Position numbers and translations under genes: made by a program. Shown one piece after another: positions 1-5,638 of a stretch of 5,638 bases of DNA. How positions within the stretch are numbered: position 1 is the stretch's first letter; every line of letters starts with the position of its first letter. The notes under the pieces were generated by a model, which saw only the letters and a program-made list of their open reading frames with translations, did not search any database and was not told where the DNA came from. This stretch comes from a virus: the IMG/VR virus record IMGVR_UViG_3300045988_003045, positions 1 to 5,638 of that record. One strand, written 5' to 3'.

Positions 1-141
1 CCCATACTTTTTCCGGCTCTACGCTGTCGAATCTGCCCGTTTCATCGTCGAAGTCTGCGATATGGTAGCCCTTGTAGTCTTCGGGTGACTGGCCCAGGAA
101 CGTTTTCTCGTCCTTTGCCATGATATTGCACATTCGTTCAA
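1..141. repeat. Terminal direct repeat, copy A (identical to 5498-5638); circularisation overlap of a 5,497-nt circular genome
   Basis: Base-by-base comparison shows 1-141 equals 5498-5638 with no mismatch. The identity ends exactly at both window ends. Confidence 0.97.
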
Positions 142-223
142 AGGTTTTATCGCTCTTGCTTTCTCCGATGTAGCAGTAGTACTTTGCTACGCTGTCGTAG
201 ATGCCATAGTATCCGTGTTTCAT
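1..223 (-). CDS. Hypothetical protein, 80 aa: 5' part (74 codons plus 1 nt) of an ORF that continues across the circular junction into 5497-5478
   Basis: ATG at 223-221 is preceded by AAGGAG with a 7-nt spacer (minus strand CTGTAAAGGAGAAAAACATG). The in-frame upstream stop is TGA at 322-320. Manual translation: MKHGYYGIYDSVAKYYCYIGESKSDKTFERMCNIMAKDEKTFLGQSPEDYKGYHIADFDDETGRFDSVEPEKVWEGKPHE. The reading frame stays open to position 1 and, on the circle, ends at TAA 5480-5478 (243 nt in total). I recognise no family. Confidence 0.55.
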   Translation of the reverse strand, partial: MKHGYYGIYDSVAKYYCYIGESKSDKTFERMCNIMAKDEKTFLGQSPEDYKGYHIADFDDETGRFDSVEPEKVW

Positions 224-319
224 GTTTTTCTCCTTTACAGTCTGATGCCGCCCCGCATGGGTTTCTGGCTGAGGTTGATACTCTTTGTCTTGCGTGCCGT
301 GACGTTGAACATCCGCTTG

Positions 320-562
320 TCAGTGCGTGCCGGCATCCTCTGTCTGTGCTTCATGTGTGTACTCCCTTCTGAGTAGTTCTAGCTCGATGTTGTTGGCCCA
401 TTTCTTCATAGTCCAGATTTGGTCAATGATTTTTTTTGCGTCTTCTGAGTTAGATACTTTTTTTATCATTTTGTATCCAGCTTCTATCTGCTTGTATAGC
501 CTTTCGGCTTCTAGCCTGAGATCTTCTTCGGTCTGGTCTCGTACGTTCCATGTTTTGCGCAT
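320..562 (-). CDS. Hypothetical small protein, 80 aa, charged and predicted helical
   Basis: ORF track entry on the same strand as all supported genes, fitting the compact gene spacing. The first in-frame ATG follows a TAA at 568-566. The SD is only weak (GAGA about 8 nt upstream). Composition is protein-like (MRKTWNVRDQTEEDLRLEAERLYKQIEAGYKMIKK...). I recognise no motif. Confidence 0.55.
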   Translation of the reverse strand: MRKTWNVRDQTEEDLRLEAERLYKQIEAGYKMIKKVSNSEDAKKIIDQIWTMKKWANNIELELLRREYTHEAQTEDAGTH

Positions 563-657
563 TAGTTATTTCTCGCTTTCTATATTTGAATAAATAAGTT
601 AATTTCTGTTTTTGTCAGGGTCGGTCTCTTGCTTTGTACAGTCTGGTCATTCTGGTT

Positions 658-762
658 TTACTCCTTTTCCTTTAGGATGTGGTAAATCTCGTCGAGCTTC
701 TCTAGAACTTTTTTAATCATCTGGATTGCTTCCTTCAGGTCTTTGACTTTAATCAGTGCCAT
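658..762 (-). CDS. Hypothetical 34-aa microprotein with a continuous 3-4 hydrophobic heptad pattern (coiled-coil-like)
   Basis: Below the ORF-track size cutoff, found by manual translation: MALIKVKDLKEAIQMIKKVLEKLDEIYHILKEKE, stop TAA 660-658. ATG 762-760 lies 2 nt after the peptidase stop and about 8 nt downstream of AAGGGGGTG, an SD embedded in the last peptidase codons. Hydrophobic residues fall at positions 6, 9, 13, 16, 20, 23, 27 and 30. Confidence 0.4.
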   Translation of the reverse strand: MALIKVKDLKEAIQMIKKVLEKLDEIYHILKEKE

Positions 763-764
763 TT

Positions 765-1148
765 TTACACCCCCTTTCTGTATCTCTCTTCACGCACATC
801 CACGTGCACGAAATTTGCGTATCTGATTACGCCGCCTTGCTCCATGATGCTATCTGCGTATTTTGCGACTTCTTGATTGCTGTGTCCTTTTACTACGATA
901 TCTGCCGCCATCCCTTTGCAGTGGTAGGAGTTTGGCGTTCCGCCGACCTTGCTGTTCCAGTTCGGCGTACGGTATCCGCTGTTGATGATCACTGGTGCGT
1001 CAAAGTGGTTTCTGATTGTTTCCAAGACTGCGAGTAGCTCAGGTGCCCACAAAAATTCTTTTGTTTTGTCTTTGCATCTAAACTCTTCTGCTTTGAAGTG
1101 TTGCGTTAATCGGTCGTTGTTTGTCTGGTTTAAGATTTCTGTACTCAT
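765..1148 (-). CDS. Zn-dependent peptidase M15 family (VanY / Peptidase_M15_3-like cell-wall hydrolase), 127 aa; candidate lysis or wall-remodelling enzyme
   Basis: The translated ORF contains SYHCKGMAAD (H-x6-D) and FVHVD, the His/Asp/His zinc-ligand pattern of M15/LAS-fold peptidases, plus the N-terminal FKAEEFRC element common in that family. I place the start at ATG 1148, which has GAGGTGG (1160-1154) 5 nt upstream. The track's longer 153-aa form starting at 1226 has no SD and runs into the promoter region. Confidence 0.85.
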   Translation of the reverse strand: MSTEILNQTNNDRLTQHFKAEEFRCKDKTKEFLWAPELLAVLETIRNHFDAPVIINSGYRTPNWNSKVGGTPNSYHCKGMAADIVVKGHSNQEVAKYADSIMEQGGVIRYANFVHVDVREERYRKGV

Positions 1149-1167
1149 TTTTACCACCTCTAGTTTT

Positions 1168-1196
1168 TTTTTATCATGCCCGGCTTGATAAGTCAA
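1168..1196 (-). promoter_or_regulatory. Candidate sigma70/sigmaA-type promoter for the peptidase and downstream genes
   Basis: The minus strand reads TTGACT (1196-1191), a 17-nt spacer ending in TGA (extended -10 TGn), then TAAAAA (1173-1168). The predicted start near 1161 lies just upstream of the peptidase SD. This is a motif match only. The -35 element sits inside a small palindrome, CTTGA-TAAG-TCAAG (1184-1197). Confidence 0.35.
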
Positions 1197-1246
1197 GGGT
1201 TTTTGAAAAAAACTTTTGACGTTCAAGTCGGGTGCCCGCGGCAGGC

Positions 1247-1414
1247 GTTTTCAACATTTTCCACATAGTTTTCAACATTTCAACATTGTTAAACTTTAGC
1301 ACAATAGAGTGTTTCAACAATTCAACAAGTTTTCAACAAATCTTTCAACATTCTTTTCAGCTGTTTTCTTACGTTTTATCGTTATAAAATAGTGGTTTTC
1401 AACTTTTCCACATA
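1247..1414. repeat. Array of TTCAACA heptamers (7 exact plus 1 partial) bracketed by a duplicated 20/21-mer GTTTTCAAC(A)TTTTCCACATA
   Basis: Exact TTCAACA occurs at 1250, 1271, 1279, 1313, 1321, 1332 and 1344, with TTCAAC at 1398. Tandem dimers TTCAACAWTTCAACA occur at 1271-1285 and 1313-1327, 42 nt apart. The long repeat lies at 1247-1267 and 1395-1414 with a 1-nt deletion. Each long copy contains TTTTCCACA (1257-1265 and 1404-1412). Confidence 0.9.
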
Positions 1415-1448
1415 CTCTACTACTACGACTACAACAAGTTATATTATA

Positions 1449-1498
1449 ATACGTGCGCACGCGTGCGCGTGTACTTTTCGCGTGTACGTGTGTGCGCG
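1449..1498. repeat. GC-rich island of alternating purine/pyrimidine with nested palindromes
   Basis: 1449-1474 (26 nt) and 1479-1498 (20 nt) alternate R/Y perfectly and are separated only by TTTT. The island contains the 14-bp perfect palindrome GCGCACGCGTGCGC (1455-1468), the palindrome GTGCGCAC (1453-1460), and a CGCGTGTAC direct repeat (1466-1474 and 1479-1487). The flanks are strongly AT-rich. Confidence 0.85.
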
Positions 1499-1501
1499 AT
1501 T

Positions 1502-1542
1502 AGAATAATAATGCCCAGTACCTTACTTGATAGGTACTGGGC
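1502..1542 (-). terminator. Perfect 11-bp stem / 8-nt loop hairpin 13 nt downstream of the rep stop, followed by a U-rich tail; candidate intrinsic terminator and/or ssDNA replication signal
   Basis: GCCCAGTACCT (1513-1523) and AGGTACTGGGC (1532-1542) are exact reverse complements, with loop 1524-1531. On the minus strand the hairpin is followed by ATTATTATTCT (1512-1502). Confidence 0.5.
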
Positions 1543-1555
1543 TAGGTGACACCGA

Positions 1556-2575
1556 TTATAAAATACCACGCTTTTTCGTTTGTTTTTTGGTGACACGTTC
1601 TTTGGTTTCTAAGACTGTCTTGTAATCTTGACCTTCTAACTGTAGTCTCTTCTGCTCCATTGCGTTTTTTTGTCTGTTCTGTTTGATTCTCCATAGCCTT
1701 TCCGGGTTTTCTGCTTCCATCTGCTTTTCATAGTATCTTGGAATCTGCGCTTGTTTTCCGTTGGTGCATTGAATGTACCCTTGCCGCCAGATTTCTGCTT
1801 TGTGTTCTTGATAGTAGTGATCGCCGAGGCCCGGCTTTAAGCTCATGCAGGCGAAAGGTTTTGTTTGCCCTAACTCGTAGTACGCATTGGCTTTCTTTCC
1901 GTCTATCTCGTACATTTTTTTTGTAACGTATCCTGCAACATATCTATAGGTTTCTGGAACTGCCTGTGCTATCTGTATCTGACCCATGCCCCATAGGCTT
2001 GCTAACCATTCGCTGGTATAGTATCCGTTGTGGTGTATCTTGTATAGATTTTTTAGGTCTGTCGGTTCCCAACCATATAGTATCATGTGATAGTGTGGCC
2101 TTGCTGTTTGCTCTCCGTATTCACCCGCTATAAAATAGCGTAATTTGCCCCTGTAAGCCTTTCTGAGACGCTTTAAGAATTTTTGAATATCTTCATACAG
2201 TAGAATTTGGACGCTTTCTGGGCGCTTCTCTCCCGGCTTCCACGTGTATTGCACCTTTCGCATGATTTCACCTGTTTTTACTATCATGCCCGGTACATGG
2301 TCATCGTCATAAGTCAGCGTGATAAACCAGACTTTCTCTTTCGGATAATCTCGTGCTTCTAGCTCGATGCGTGTTGTCCAGTCCTCTCGCTGTCTGATTC
2401 TGCATCCGATGCACTGCCCGCATGGTATCAACATAACTTTCGGATTATACATTAAATCTTCATATTTTAGCTGTTTTCCGCTTAACTGAGAAAAGCGGGC
2501 GAGTGAATATACCCGCCCGCTCACTTCCTTGTTGTTCGGGTTGTACAGCCTAATTAGTGGCTTGTAACAACTCAT
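1556..2575 (-). CDS. VP4: Replication initiation protein (HUH rolling-circle endonuclease; Microviridae VP4 / phiX174 protein A family), 339 aa
   Basis: RCR motifs are present in order: FITLTY (motif I), [10 protein letters not shown] (HUH, motif II) and [11 protein letters not shown] (motif III). Motif III has the Y-x-x-x-Y catalytic tyrosine pair arranged as in phiX174 protein A. An N-terminal Cys cluster, CGQCIGC, is also present. GGAGGA lies 9 nt upstream of the ATG. The ATG overlaps the VP2 stop (ATGA at 2575-2572). Confidence 0.93.
2489..2520 (-). other. Terminator-like hairpin plus T-tract on the sense strand inside rep codons 19-29
   Basis: The minus strand reads GCGGGCGGGT-ATATTC-ACTCGCCCGC, a 10-bp stem with one G.U(T) pair and a 6-nt loop (2520-2495), followed directly by TTTTCT (2494-2489). 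On the opposite strand the same position is an A.C mismatch, so the structure is better on the coding/virion-sense strand. Confidence 0.4.
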
Positions 2576-3387
2576 TTTTTTCTTCCTCCGCCTGTATGGA
2601 AGTTTCCTCCGCCCGCTTTAAACGGTACGGTTTTTTCTGTATTTTCCATCTGTTTATAGGTTTTGAGTAGATCTTCTGTTAGCTGTACCGGACTGCTATA
2701 GCCCGTGCTCATTTGACTTCCCACGGCTTCTGCCAGCTGGTACCACTGCGACTTACTTTCACTTCGGCTGAAATAACTGTTTGGCACGTTGCCGCTTAGC
2801 GCAGATACTCCCAGCGCGCTTGATGCTGGCATTCCCATGCTTGCGCCTGTGATTGTTGCGCCTGAACCTCCCGGTGTGCTTGCGCCGCCCTGTGCGTATG
2901 CTAAAATCGGGTTTAGTCCGGCTTTTCGCATATCTTCTACTGCTCTTTGGTATGCTGTATTGCTCATACGTTCTTGGAACTGTCTGTTTGCCAGTGCTTC
3001 GGCGCTGTTGTACTGCATTGCGGCATTATTTTCGATGTGGTTATAAATGCCCTGTTGGATTGCTGACAACGTGTTGTAGCCCATCTGCATGAGCATGTTT
3101 TGACGGTTTGTTTTACTTTGGAAAGCGTTTTGTCCGCCTTGCCACTGGTAGTATTTGTTGAGATAGTCCATGATTTGCTTGTCGTTTGTTCCGCCTGCGC
3201 TCATGGATGTGCTTTGTCCCCCGCCTTGGCTCTGGCTGAAGTTGCTTCCTTGGCTTTGGTTTTCGCTTTTCTGTCCAAAGTAGCTTGATAGCCCTTTGCC
3301 GATCAGTGACATTCCTGTGGTTACGACTTCTGGATGACTTGCAAGCCACGTGCCTGCGCTTGATAGCATTGCTCCTAATCCTGCCAT
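2572..3387 (-). CDS. VP2: Minor capsid / DNA pilot protein (Microviridae VP2, phiX174 H analogue), 271 aa
   Basis: It lies immediately downstream of the major capsid gene. It has a Gly/Ala-rich N-terminus, a low-complexity Gly/Ser/Gln region, and the conserved segment [22 protein letters not shown] that I recognise from gokushovirus-type VP2 proteins. Start-codon choice (3387 versus 3369) is uncertain; see the finding on the SD-hairpin arrangement. Confidence 0.85.
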
Positions 3388-3390
3388 TAT

Positions 3391-3415
3391 AAAACAGCCC
3401 GGATTTCTCCGGGCT
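3391..3415 (-). terminator. Hairpin plus T-tract between VP1 and VP2; candidate leaky intrinsic terminator or attenuator
   Basis: The minus strand reads AGCCCGG-AGAAAT-CCGGGCT, a 7-bp perfect stem (3415-3396), followed by GTTTTATA and then the VP2 ATG. It starts 11 nt after the VP1 stop codon (TAA 3429-3427). Confidence 0.5.
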
Positions 3416-3426
3416 TCCTCCTTTCT

Positions 3427-5103
3427 TTACAGTTTTTCCAGGCCCGGTACACTGTACAGCGGCATACAACGAGTGGTTTTGTTCATTACTCGGATTGCTC
3501 CGAAGAACTGGGGTTCGTTCTGAACAATCAAAGTTCGTGCAATTTCGGTTTTGCCCTCGTTCATCCACTCTTGGCTCAGTGTCGGCACGGTTTCGTAGTT
3601 GTCCGCATAGTGCCAGTAGTCCAGCGTGCCTTCCGCATTACTCCGCATTTTTCCGCTGATTCTGTTCGGTTTCATACGGTAGTCTGCCCATGCTTCCTGA
3701 TAGCCGAATGTTTCATCGTCCGTTGCTGTACCGGTGAGCATGATTTCTTTTTTCTTGACAGGCTGTTCGCCCAGATTTGCGAACTGAGGGAAATAGTAGT
3801 CGAGACGGTCGCTTCTGCTCCAGAATCGTTCAAGGCCCTGCTGATAGCTTCTGTCGTGTCTTACGCATAGTACACCTATGATAAAGCCGTGTTCCTCAAA
3901 AGATTTTGTGAAACTGCTTTCGTTGATAGGTGTTACGGACATTGCACCGGTTTCACCTATGGGCGTATCGTTATCTGCCTGCTGTCCGCTGGTCTGCACG
4001 ATCTGATTGATGTTCACGTGATAGCGTCCACCACCCAGATACTCCGGCACCTGTACAGTTTTGTCGCTGATGCTTACGCCGAATAGTGCCCTTACTTGCT
4101 CACGGTATCTGCTACCGCCTCTTGCCATCGCTTCGTAGTAGTGTTGCACTGCAAAGGCTTGCCGGAGCTGGTTGACGGTTGCGGCTTCAATGTTGCTGAG
4201 GTTTGCCCCGAGATATCCGTTTTTTACTCCGTCATTGAATGCCATTGACGGAATATCTTCTCCCGGTGTAGGCATGCTTGTTGCATTGAAGTTTGTCCCG
4301 TATTCATGATGCAGTTCTTCTGTCAGTTTTTCGCTTGTGAACGTTGTTACAGGTGCATTCCCCGTCAGTGCAATTGTGACTTCCGGCCCGCGCTGAGGAT
4401 ACGGCAGACAGCTTGTGAAATAATCGTGGAATTTCGAGACCGGCAGACATGGCCCGCCTGTGTATGCGTCTATGTATTCTTTTCCGGCTTGTTCATTTAC
4501 GTATCCGTTGTCTCCTCTGTCGAAATATTTTACTCCCTCATCTCCTTTTTGATACCATGCCGGATTGTCTGTATTTTGGTCTCTGAAGAATTCGTTCCAG
4601 ATTTTGATATATGCTCTTACCGGTAGTGCATTGATTTCAATATCGTTTTTGCTCTCTTTTTCGTTTAGGTGTGTCGGCACTCCCATGTAGTCCAGGATGC
4701 TTTGTGTTTTTGGCCCTTTGTATGCATCTGGCTGGTTTTCTGCGCTTGGATTTCCCACAATTTTGATTTTTGGTACACTGTACGTTTTTGCAGGCATCCA
4801 TGGTTCTTCGTCTGCTTCACCCATGAATTTCTTGAAGTTATCCCACAGTATTCTGTTTGGACAGAAGAAATAATAGAAATCGATGTATGCATCGTCCATT
4901 ACCGGGTATTTTGGTGTGGTCATTCGGATAATTGCCGCTGTGTTCACGCTGAAAGTATCGCCCGGCAGTACTTCGTCTACATAGAACGGAATCAGCTTGC
5001 CTGCATCGAAAGTCGTGAGAATGTTTTGATCTCGGGTAAAGCGCGTTCTGCTCACGTGCGTTTCCGGTACCTGGTTGAAGTGTCTCTCATTATTCCGGTT
5101 CAT
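3427..5103 (-). CDS. VP1: Major capsid protein (Microviridae F / VP1 family), 558 aa
   Basis: This is the largest ORF. The N-terminal region RHFNQVPETHVSRTRFTRDQNILTTFDAGKLIPFYVDEVLPGDTF matches the conserved N-terminal pattern of Microviridae major capsid proteins, and the size is typical of gokushovirus-like VP1. I place the start at ATG 5103, with GGAGG (5114-5110) 6 nt upstream. The track's 580-aa form from 5169 lacks an SD. Confidence 0.95.
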   Translation of the reverse strand: MNRNNERHFNQVPETHVSRTRFTRDQNILTTFDAGKLIPFYVDEVLPGDTFSVNTAAIIRMTTPKYPVMDDAYIDFYYFFCPNRILWDNFKKFMGEADEEPWMPAKTYSVPKIKIVGNPSAENQPDAYKGPKTQSILDYMGVPTHLNEKESKNDIEINALPVRAYIKIWNEFFRDQNTDNPAWYQKGDEGVKYFDRGDNGYVNEQAGKEYIDAYTGGPCLPVSKFHDYFTSCLPYPQRGPEVTIALTGNAPVTTFTSEKLTEELHHEYGTNFNATSMPTPGEDIPSMAFNDGVKNGYLGANLSNIEAATVNQLRQAFAVQHYYEAMARGGSRYREQVRALFGVSISDKTVQVPEYLGGGRYHVNINQIVQTSGQQADNDTPIGETGAMSVTPINESSFTKSFEEHGFIIGVLCVRHDRSYQQGLERFWSRSDRLDYYFPQFANLGEQPVKKKEIMLTGTATDDETFGYQEAWADYRMKPNRISGKMRSNAEGTLDYWHYADNYETVPTLSQEWMNEGKTEIARTLIVQNEPQFFGAIRVMNKTTRCMPLYSVPGLEKL

Positions 5104-5485
5104 TGTTTTCCTCCTGTTTCTTTGTCTCTTCTGCGGCCTTTTTCTGCATCCTCTGCAGTTCCATTGCATTGGCTTGCGCCGTTGCCATCATGGCGTGATA
5201 CTCGTGAATGTTTGTCGGCCATTCGGTGATATCCATGACTTCGTCTGTTTTTGCGCTGTCTACTAGACTTTTGGCAAACTCCGGGTCGAAACTTGCTTTG
5301 CGGACAATGTTTTTGATGTCGCATTCATCTGCATAGCTTTCAATTTCGCCCTGAATGTCGATTGGTTCGGTTTCAATCAACTTTTGGTTGCCTTTCTCGT
5401 CTTTTCCCCAGACGTATTGCTTGCGCAGTTTTTCGCCCGAATTTGAAAAGAAGGGCTTTCGCCCCTCCTCGTATCGCTTATTCAT
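5090..5485 (-). CDS. VP3: Internal scaffolding protein-like (Microviridae VP3-like), 131 aa
   Basis: This acidic 131-aa protein is encoded directly upstream of VP1 and overlaps it by 14 nt. The central segment IQGEIESYADECDIKNIVRKASFDPE resembles the conserved core I recall from gokushovirus VP3 proteins. An SD, GGGAGGG (about 5499-5493), spans the circular junction 9 nt upstream of the ATG. The assignment rests on size, position and partial motif recall, not on a search. Confidence 0.65.
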   Translation of the reverse strand: MNKRYEEGRKPFFSNSGEKLRKQYVWGKDEKGNQKLIETEPIDIQGEIESYADECDIKNIVRKASFDPEFAKSLVDSAKTDEVMDITEWPTNIHEYHAMMATAQANAMELQRMQKKAAEETKKQEENNEPE

Positions 5486-5638
5486 GCGGCTTGCCCTCCC
5501 ATACTTTTTCCGGCTCTACGCTGTCGAATCTGCCCGTTTCATCGTCGAAGTCTGCGATATGGTAGCCCTTGTAGTCTTCGGGTGACTGGCCCAGGAACGT
5601 TTTCTCGTCCTTTGCCATGATATTGCACATTCGTTCAA
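5478..5638 (-). CDS. Second (duplicated) view of the junction-spanning 80-aa hypothetical ORF: its 3' end (5478-5497) plus the repeated copy of codons 28-74
   Basis: The same reading frame as 1-223 continues through 5638-5498 (the repeat copy) into unique sequence and stops at TAA 5480-5478. This overlaps the VP3-like start (ATG 5485) by 8 nt. Confidence 0.55.
   Translation of the reverse strand, partial: ERMCNIMAKDEKTFLGQSPEDYKGYHIADFDDETGRFDSVEPEKVWEGKPHE
5498..5638. repeat. Terminal direct repeat, copy B (identical to 1-141)
   Basis: See copy A. The identity is exact over 141 nt. Confidence 0.97.

Follow-up and report, generated by a model that had tools for sequence, protein, structure and literature searches.

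What function is served by a dense array of short direct repeats in the only large non-coding stretch of a very small phage genome? This question is raised by positions 1 to 5,638 of IMG/VR record IMGVR_UViG_3300045988_003045 (hereafter the window, i.e. the whole 5638-nt stretch of DNA that was analysed), which was found to consist of a circular gokushovirus genome of 5497 nt plus a 141-nt terminal overlap from assembly. Textbooks use the Microviridae to illustrate rolling-circle replication driven by Rep, in which the host initiator has no role. The sole large non-coding stretch (1149-1555, flanked by the stop of the Rep/VP4 gene and the start of the peptidase M15 gene) contains a cassette of ~205 bp (1247-1451) composed of boxes resembling those bound by the bacterial initiator DnaA, a spacer, a tract resembling DnaA-trios and an A+T tract. 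The layout of this cassette resembles that of the module at which DNA is opened in a bacterial chromosome origin, an arrangement that is unexpected in a rolling-circle, single-stranded DNA phage. The layout leads us to lean towards a role in which host DnaA would bind the replicative form at the cassette and open the A+T tract, most simply starting host-driven (i.e. theta) copying.

Layout of the cassette and its match to bacterial origins

The heptamer TTCAACA occurs seven times in the window, on the + strand only (1250, 1271, 1279, 1313, 1321, 1332 and 1344), and a partial copy, TTCAAC, is located at 1398-1403. In 200 dinucleotide shuffles, the heptamer was found 1.05 times on average with a maximum of 4 copies, and never 7 times. 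An earlier description of this DNA, made from the letters alone (hereafter the sequence-only reading), had reported seven heptamers and one partial copy in the same orientation, two dimers placed 42 nt apart (i.e. TTCAACATTTCAACA at 1271-1285 and TTCAACAATTCAACA at 1313-1327), bracketing repeats of ~20 nt (i.e. GTTTTCAACATTTTCCACATA at 1247-1267 and GTTTTCAACTTTTCCACATA at 1395-1414) and DnaA-like 9-mers both within the brackets and as extended heptamers at 1248, 1269 and 1330; all of these coordinates were confirmed. Equating the 42 nt with four helical turns was accurate as regards the distance between the starts, but the relationship is better expressed as a location of all distal boxes on the helical face of the box nearest to the trios. 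The continuation of the functional unit to ~1451 had been overlooked.

The heptamers were found to be the cores of ~10 same-orientation 9-mers, either TTTTCAACA (exact at 1248, 1269 and 1330) or TTTTCCACA (exact at 1257 and 1404). As quoted in PMC3322544, the DnaA-box consensus is TT(A/T)TC(C/A)ACA for Mollicutes (Cordova et al. 2002) and TT(A/T)T(C/T)(C/A)ACA for Acholeplasma laidlawii. Both 9-mers fit the Mollicutes/Acholeplasma consensus, as do TTATCAACA and TTTTTAACA, one or other of which occupies homologous positions in related phages. Ten boxes of the window were compared with TT(A/T)T(C/T)(C/A)ACA, with five being exact, four having one mismatch and one (i.e. AATTCAACA) having two. Exact matches to TTWTYMACA number five in the window as compared to 0.55 expected, and all five are in the array on one strand. 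The sequence-only reading had proposed host DnaA as a candidate binder and had graded the evidence as weak because two of the 9-mers lay inside one duplication. With ten boxes that fit a published consensus and are followed by trios and an A+T tract, this candidate gains strong support. The components of the cassette are as follows.

1248-1285, + strand: distal box cluster 3, i.e. TTTTCAACA (1248), TTTTCCACA (1257), TTTTCAACA (1269) and ATTTCAACA (1277)
1286-1310: variable inter-cluster spacer, TTGTTAAACTTTAGCACAATAGAGTG, with a column conservation of ~0.5
1311-1350, + strand: distal box cluster 2, i.e. GTTTCAACA (1311), AATTCAACA (1319), TTTTCAACA (1330) and CTTTCAACA (1342), with start-to-start spacings of 8, 11 and 12
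1351-1395: T-rich linker with T4 at 1354, 1364 and 1374 and A4 at 1386, i.e. a phasing of ~10 nt
1396-1412, + strand: trio-proximal tandem pair of boxes, TTTTCAACT (1396-1404) and TTTTCCACA (1404-1412), with a start spacing of 8
1413-1416: 4-nt spacer, TACT
1417-1437, - strand: DnaA-trio-like tract, 5'-TTG TTG TAG TCG TAG TAG TAG-3', i.e. 3'-GAT-5' repeats
1438-1451: a G followed by a 13-nt A+T-only tract, TTATATTATAATA, a putative unwinding element

Read along the + strand, the order is therefore TTTTCAAC-TTTTCCACA (1396-1412), TACT, the complement of the trio-like tract followed by G (CTA CTA CTA CGA CTA CAA CAA G, 1417-1438) and the A+T tract (1439-1451). The distal boxes share a helical face with the trio-proximal box: the phasing statistic R peaks at 10.5 bp, with values of 0.74 for all cassettes and 0.76 for the window alone, the latter being matched in 247 of 100,000 random placements. 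The 10-nt phasing of the T and A tracts suggests that the DNA is probably bent intrinsically in the linker that joins the distal boxes to the proximal ones.

A basal unwinding system (BUS) has been described for bacterial oriC, e.g. the incC boxes 6 and 7 and DnaA-trios of B. subtilis (Richardson 2016/2019; Pelliciari 2021, PMC8287927). Under the published rules, the box may deviate at no more than 2 positions; a second tandem box is optional, is allowed up to 4 mismatches and is separated from the first by no more than 3 bp; the spacer spans 0-16 bp, within which the GC-rich gap that follows the proximal box has a mean length of 4 bp; and three or more consecutive 3'-NAN-5' trios are required, GAT being the commonest beside the box. 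The trios are encoded by the 5' tail relative to the boxes ('5'-tail encoding DnaA-trios'), a minimum of three is needed for origin activity and trios 1-3 are the most important. The complement of the trio strand in B. subtilis reads 5'-CTACTATTACTTCTACTA-3', preceded on the 5' side by the boxes, and the distal boxes of incC are helically phased, act at a distance and function in either orientation. The window conforms to each of these rules. Its proximal box, TTTTCCACA at 1404-1412, has 1 mismatch; the second box, TTTTCAACT at 1396-1404, differs from TTATCCACA at 3 positions; a spacer of 4 nt comes next; and GAT GAT GAT follows with the published strand polarity. In its 5' to 3' reading, the box is directed at the trios and at the unwinding element, and the A+T region is represented by the 13-nt run at 1439-1451, which is short beside those of chromosomal origins.

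This layout (1396-1451) ranked top of the 8 permissive BUS candidates in the genome, and the composite pattern was observed in 4 of 20,000 composition-matched random genomes. The direction of the boxes was checked in two ways. In oriC of E. coli, an unwinding element is followed by TGTGGATAA (i.e. R1); the sequence used for this comparison matched 5425 of 5426 E. coli genomes, with 100% identity for the best records. A search of IMG/VR for TTATCCACA-N2-6-CTACTACTA produced 20 distinct matches, 12 of which had a multi-box, A+T-flanked context, as compared to 1 of 8 for an inverted-box control.

Conservation and mobility in related phages

The closest public genomes are gut gokushoviruses of human, pig, monkey and others, and the non-coding region matched 51 phage records (blastn). 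In addition, 80 IMG/VR loci with a Rep 84-97% identical to that of the window were fetched. An array with similar spacing was present in all 72 of the loci that had enough downstream sequence. The eight loci without an array comprise seven that are truncated and one, L051, that is most likely an assembly chimera. L051 is the sole relative with downstream sequence but without the cassette; at 3600-6017, Rep and the hairpin of a relative adjoin portal and Mu F genes of tailed phages that lie on the opposite strand, with the break located just after ...ccatgtatca.actattcagt. The sequence-only reading had argued that so dense an array implies a function and had looked to shuffles and to the non-coding regions of relatives for a decision. 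The heptamer excess and the presence of the array in every evaluable locus both bear out this argument, indicating that the repeats make up an array of protein-binding sites that is conserved and under selection.

When 69 distinct modules were aligned, the box columns exhibited conservation of 0.9-0.99, and the boxes at 1248-1285 were homologous to the third cluster of the alignment. Cluster 2 (query 164-303) was the part most broadly kept among distant relatives (blastn), and the inter-cluster spacer was swapped for a CGTCA..TGACG hairpin sequence in other subclades. Variation was then counted in 132 distinct cassettes of gut gokushoviruses. At most one mismatch to TTWTYMACA was detected for the proximal box in 120 of the 132 and for the second box in 114, with the second box being 8 nt upstream (start-to-start) in 125. 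The gap was exactly 4 nt in 115 cassettes whilst its sequence was free (35 different 4-mers, 54% GC). At least three consecutive trios were present in 130 cassettes; trios 1-3 were invariant and the fourth varied (CGA, CTC, CGG, CTA, CGT or CTT), which agrees with the published three-trio minimum. Tract-length variants always differed by multiples of 3 nt. An A+T-only run of 12-13 nt was found in 90 of the 132, and the run extended up to 25 nt in some.

The cassette can accordingly be regarded as a natural minimal BUS with a core of ~60 bp plus distal boxes and more than 130 natural sequence variants, which provide a comparative dataset for the DnaA-trio model. Tolerant positions are the spacer sequence and the fourth trio; change is not tolerated in the boxes and trios 1-3, in the 4-bp gap or in the 3-nt register.

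Conservation of the cassette extends beyond that of the phage proteins. Between the window and four divergent genomes, the cassette DNA was 71-81% identical whilst Rep was 35-46% and VP1 41-45% identical, and whole-genome blastn with the same four genomes placed the cassette among the best-conserved DNA segments. Retention of the cassette despite divergence of Rep and VP1 points to a conserved host partner and less to a co-evolving phage protein.

The position and orientation of the cassette relative to the genes were found to be variable. In four close relatives (L029, L050, L066 and L068) the whole unit, i.e. boxes plus A+T tract, is inverted between the same flanks. In KX513864, KT264784 and MT121961 the cassette is situated between VP2 and VP4, not after VP4, and in these three genomes and KT264801 its orientation relative to the genes is opposite to that of the window. 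In a census of distinct cassettes, the box strand was antisense to the genes in 113 and sense in 32. The Rep gene is never far from the cassette, which lies on either side of it and flips relative both to the genes and to a candidate nick hairpin (see below). Neither strand of the cassette exhibited structure as single-stranded DNA beyond that of shuffles (z = +0.53 and +0.57), and the adjacent 1440-1560 was strongly structured as a single strand (z = -4.3). The occurrence of both orientations and two placements, combined with the lack of a single-stranded fold, indicates that the cassette behaves as an orientation-free double-stranded element.

Neighbouring features and the function of the cassette

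All of the genes in the window genome, including several small open reading frames (ORFs), are on the - strand. An Rfam 15 scan of the whole window (E <= 1) detected no match in 1149-1555. The principal genes and the features that flank the cassette are listed here.

765-1148, - strand: peptidase M15 gene (M15_3 / endolysin-like)
1556-2575, - strand: Rep/VP4
2572-3387, - strand: VP2 pilot protein
3427-5169, - strand: VP1 capsid
5090-5485, - strand: VP3 scaffold
1168-1196, - strand: sigma-70-type promoter, TTGACT-17-TAAAAA with TG before it, read from the sequence and assigned to the peptidase M15 operon
1168-1232, - strand: conserved promoter block with ACGCCTGCCGCGGGCA, the inverted repeat GTCAAGGGTTTTT/AAAAACTTTTGAC (1192-1220), TTGACT-17-TAAAAA and the ribosome-binding site GAGGTGG
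1452-1499: nested, GC-rich palindromes of alternating purines and pyrimidines, e.g. GCGCACGCGTGCGC
1513-1553: 11-bp stem-loop with loop TACTTGAT on the + strand, then GGTGACACC; separate from the cassette

The peptidase M15 gene is likewise annotated in related GenBank gokushoviruses and, as its product is a peptidoglycan hydrolase, implies a walled host. The promoter block moves independently of the cassette in distant relatives and directly follows VP4, without a cassette, in KX513864 and KT264784. This separability indicates that the array is not an operator of that promoter, and control of the adjacent promoter, one of the functions put forward by the sequence-only reading, is not borne out. 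The palindromes flank the cassette in most relatives, are ~200 nt away in KX513864 and KT264784 and are absent from MT121961, so they are not an obligatory part of the cassette; they might form Z-DNA or a cruciform, or act as a recombination hotspot for inversion of the cassette. A dif/XerCD interpretation of GTGCGCACGTATTATAATATAAC was rejected, as visual comparison showed a poor match of its arms to known dif sites and prophages were not found.

The stem-loop at 1513-1553 is a candidate for the Rep nick site or origin of rolling-circle replication (RCR). Its loop, TACTTGAT, contains ACTTGAT, a heptamer of the phiX174 origin CAACTTG/ATATTAATAAC (sequence verified, with the nick presumably at the position marked). 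Across loci, 25 distinct stems with compensatory changes were observed whilst the loop was conserved, and the element was 90% identical in Apis- and Ciona-associated microviruses. ACTTGAT is gene-sense in these microviruses and antisense in the window, a difference that raises the question of which strand is packaged by this clade. A 10-mer in the promoter region, CTTGATAAGT at 1184, is almost a second copy of CTTGATAGGT, the hairpin-loop region at 1526.

How the cassette might work can be proposed from its layout. Host DnaA would fill the distal clusters (1248-1350) on one helical face, with the bent T-tract linker connecting them to the proximal pair, and this occupancy would make DnaA locally more concentrated at the tandem pair (1396-1412). 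From this pair, an oligomer of DnaA-ATP would pass over the fixed 4-bp gap onto the (TAG)n strand (1417-1437), which it would stretch, melting the adjoining 13-bp A+T tract. The opened DNA would then serve the host helicase-loading machinery, leading to theta-type copying of the replicative form; a less likely use would be to help the phage Rep to reach single-stranded DNA. If this proposal were true, the phages of a large and abundant clade of gut gokushoviruses from humans and animals would plug into the initiation of the host chromosome, which would change the view of replication, persistence and host dependence in the Microviridae.

Several observations weigh against opening of the cassette by host DnaA. 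Most boxes have A, not the canonical C, at position 6 and only 57% have T at position 1, so that their status as DnaA sites hangs on the host DnaA resembling that of Mollicutes; the cell-wall peptidase encoded by the phage signifies a walled host. The fourth trio is often not of the form NAN (CGA, CGG or CGT). The A+T tract of B. subtilis is 27 bp as compared to only 13 bp in the cassette. The Microviridae that have been studied use Rep-driven rolling circles and, to our knowledge, have no need for DnaA. The 132 cassettes share descent, and their counts represent one conserved design and no independent trials. Lastly, the BUS pattern was recognised post hoc.

A stronger version of the proposal, which we consider unlikely, is that the cassette is a complete, portable mini-oriC. 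The double-stranded form would replicate through host DnaA and helicase loading, independently of the Rep nickase, as a plasmid-like episome (i.e. in a carrier state or pseudolysogeny), and rolling circles would be used only for virion output. Such an episome would be the first 'phage-plasmid' lifestyle in the Microviridae and would explain the lack of integrated relatives among 185,579 species representatives; the box type would become a read-out of host range, pointing to walled Bacillota related to Mollicutes.

The main rival, in our judgement distinctly unlikely, is that the array consists of Rep iterons, i.e. the bind locus of a rolling-circle double-strand origin at which VP4 would bind the repeats and nick either the CTA/A+T region or the 1513-1542 hairpin. 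The origin would then resemble those of pT181 and pMV158, with their bind and nick loci, or the iterons of geminiviruses. Origins of RCR do combine a bind site with a nick site, and the constant proximity of the cassette to the Rep gene and the direct-repeat spacing of about one turn, which is typical of iterons, are in keeping with this function. Iterons normally change with the specificity of Rep, however, and co-variation of the repeats with the initiator was not found: the boxes are the same in genomes whose Rep is 35-46% identical. A nick site inside the cassette would also swap the displaced strand each time that the cassette flipped relative to the genes and the hairpin. Two potential nick sequences were considered. 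The window sequence at 1421-1429, TACTACGAC, which we take to be the nick sequence of pMV158-family RCR plasmids, was dropped as a probable coincidence, not being conserved because the fourth triplet varies in relatives; CAACAAG/TTATATTATAATAC is loosely like the phiX174 origin (see above). Nor would iterons account for the exact BUS grammar, the gap of 4 nt and the register of indels in steps of 3 nt, all of which would be coincidences.

Binding of DnaA without opening of the DNA would account for the boxes equally well, the evidence from these being the same as for an opening module. The cassette would then be a sink, comparable to datA or to clusters of DnaA boxes, that titrates the initiator and blocks host initiation, or else a sensor of growth state or transcriptional switch. 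With ~10 boxes per copy, a multicopy replicative form could titrate DnaA, and in genomes of the window type the cassette is just upstream of a promoter. A sink or an operator would, however, have no need for the conserved trio register, the 4-nt gap or the A+T tract, and the promoter block is separable from the cassette, making these functions quite improbable.

We regard it as very improbable that another double-stranded-DNA-binding protein (e.g. an OmpR/WalR-type response regulator, Spo0A or a small phage protein) regulates phage genes from the array. The comparison with Spo0A, introduced by the sequence-only reading, was attractive in that phi29 provides a precedent for a phage with sites for this host regulator and the gene-sense repeat, TGTTGAA, is one mismatch from the 0A box, TGTCGAA. 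The 0A box requires G at box position 6, but this base, and with it the C-G step and TGTCGAA itself, was present in 0 of 1061 cassette boxes. For WalR, the variant TGTTAAA fits what we take to be its motif, TGTWAH, but the dominant TGTTGAA breaks the A at position 5. Both proteins were rejected on box composition, Spo0A as far as a sequence can reveal. The 11-12 nt spacings would suit the direct repeats of response regulators, and an unrelated contig, L089, has three TGTTGAA copies upstream of a peptidase-M15-like gene. Against regulators in general, the cassette is tied to no promoter, the trios are left unexplained and the small ORFs of the phage yielded neither a helix-turn-helix nor any other domain for DNA binding.

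Complementary-strand priming, also suggested by the sequence-only reading, would make the cassette a single-strand origin on the packaged DNA (like the phiX174 primosome assembly site, the G4 origin or a plasmid sso), and is extremely improbable, for although the phage must carry such a signal somewhere and the cassette lies in the only large non-coding region, such elements are strand-specific whereas the cassette occurs in both orientations, it folds no better than shuffles on either strand, its boxes are all direct repeats and therefore cannot pair into a duplex DnaA box, and the strong structure lies in the neighbouring 1440-1560.

Clues to the host and comparison with known systems

If host DnaA does act at the cassette, the type of box is a testable clue to the hosts of these phages. 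Searches for a host by similarity were negative. Comparison of Rep with one representative genome from each of 185,579 species detected no relatives and no prophages, and an exact-protein look-up of Rep returned metagenome assemblies only. The conserved 22-nt pattern of the trio region was found in only two of the representative genomes, namely in a mis-binned phage contig (L205) and as a chance coding match (L206). L205 (CAVKUS010000079.1, 5739 nt) is a complete gokushovirus contig with the cassette that was binned in the metagenome-assembled genome of 'Bacteroides sp. CAG:545'; the binning is probably an artefact and provides no evidence for the host.

Searches of IMG/VR were extended to contigs outside the microviruses. 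Non-microvirus matches to a pattern of three TGTTGAA copies were mostly coding tandem repeats. A few non-coding TGTTGAA(A) arrays were also present (L089, L112, L139 and L158): in L089, three copies at 7930-7958 are upstream of the promoter of the peptidase-M15-like gene; in L158, TGTGGAAAA and three TGTTGAAA are located at 2226-2253 within an apparent replication-organiser gene; and L112 and L139 have TGTTGAAAACTATGTTGAAACTGTTGAAAG in common. These four arrays may be clusters of DnaA-type boxes in other gut phages. For the pattern CTACTAC..CTACAACAAGT, the non-microvirus matches were Thr/Ser-rich coding repeats. In IMG/VR contigs of 23-161 kb (L304, L309, L320 and L296/L305/L316), clusters of consensus TTATCCACA boxes lead, across a GC-rich gap of 4 nt, into (CTA)3-5 and then A+T-rich DNA, which is the canonical BUS grammar. 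The neighbours of these clusters were checked in L304, L309 and L320 and were phage-like genes (ExoX-like nuclease, cell-wall hydrolase, DUF1064 and AAA_5), with no dnaA or dnaN. Tailed phages may commonly carry BUS-type origins, and phage use of the module may be wider than has been described.

No paper that links DnaA boxes, DnaA-trios or iterons with Microviridae was found in the literature searched. The cassette was compared with replicons and origins of other kinds. Like the origins of pT181/pMV158 and of geminiviruses and CRESS viruses, it belongs to a rolling-circle replicon and places direct repeats close to the gene for the initiator; unlike these origins, its repeats do not co-vary with Rep, are free in position and orientation relative to the genes and are accompanied by the BUS grammar. 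The origins of P1 (i.e. oriR), F, pSC101 and RK2 resemble the cassette in placing DnaA boxes beside an A+T-rich opening region in a mobile replicon. These replicons use their own Rep on separate iterons, whereas only DnaA-type repeats are present in the cassette and the phage Rep is an HUH nickase. We know of no DnaA-trio tract described for these four origins. In Mollicutes, short segments with DnaA boxes and A+T DNA are enough for autonomous replication of oriC plasmids. The Mollicutes consensus covers the box variants of the cassette, but the phage host is walled; in SpV4, a gokushovirus of Spiroplasma (a Mollicute), the boxes were scattered and no cassette was found.

Comparison with chromosomal origins is more detailed. 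The low-affinity DnaA sites of E. coli oriC are same-orientation 9-mers that are 2 bp apart. Like these arrays, which guide growth of the DnaA oligomer, the cassette has imperfect same-orientation 9-mers with a periodicity of ~11 bp; unlike them, its spacings of 8, 9, 11 and 12 are mixed and its boxes fall into three clusters separated by 25-45 bp. With the BUS of bacterial oriC, the cassette has in common tandem boxes directed towards the trios, a 4-bp gap, at least three GAT trios on the 5'-tail strand, an adjacent A+T tract and phased distal boxes. It differs in being carried by a single-stranded DNA phage, in having boxes that are mostly TTTTCAACA and not TTATCCACA, in that the better box is the trio-proximal one, in an A+T tract of only 13 bp and in being mobile and invertible within the genome. 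As the cassette resides in a 5.5-kb gokushovirus and not beside dnaA or dnaN, it is not a chromosomal oriC and is best described as being built like one.

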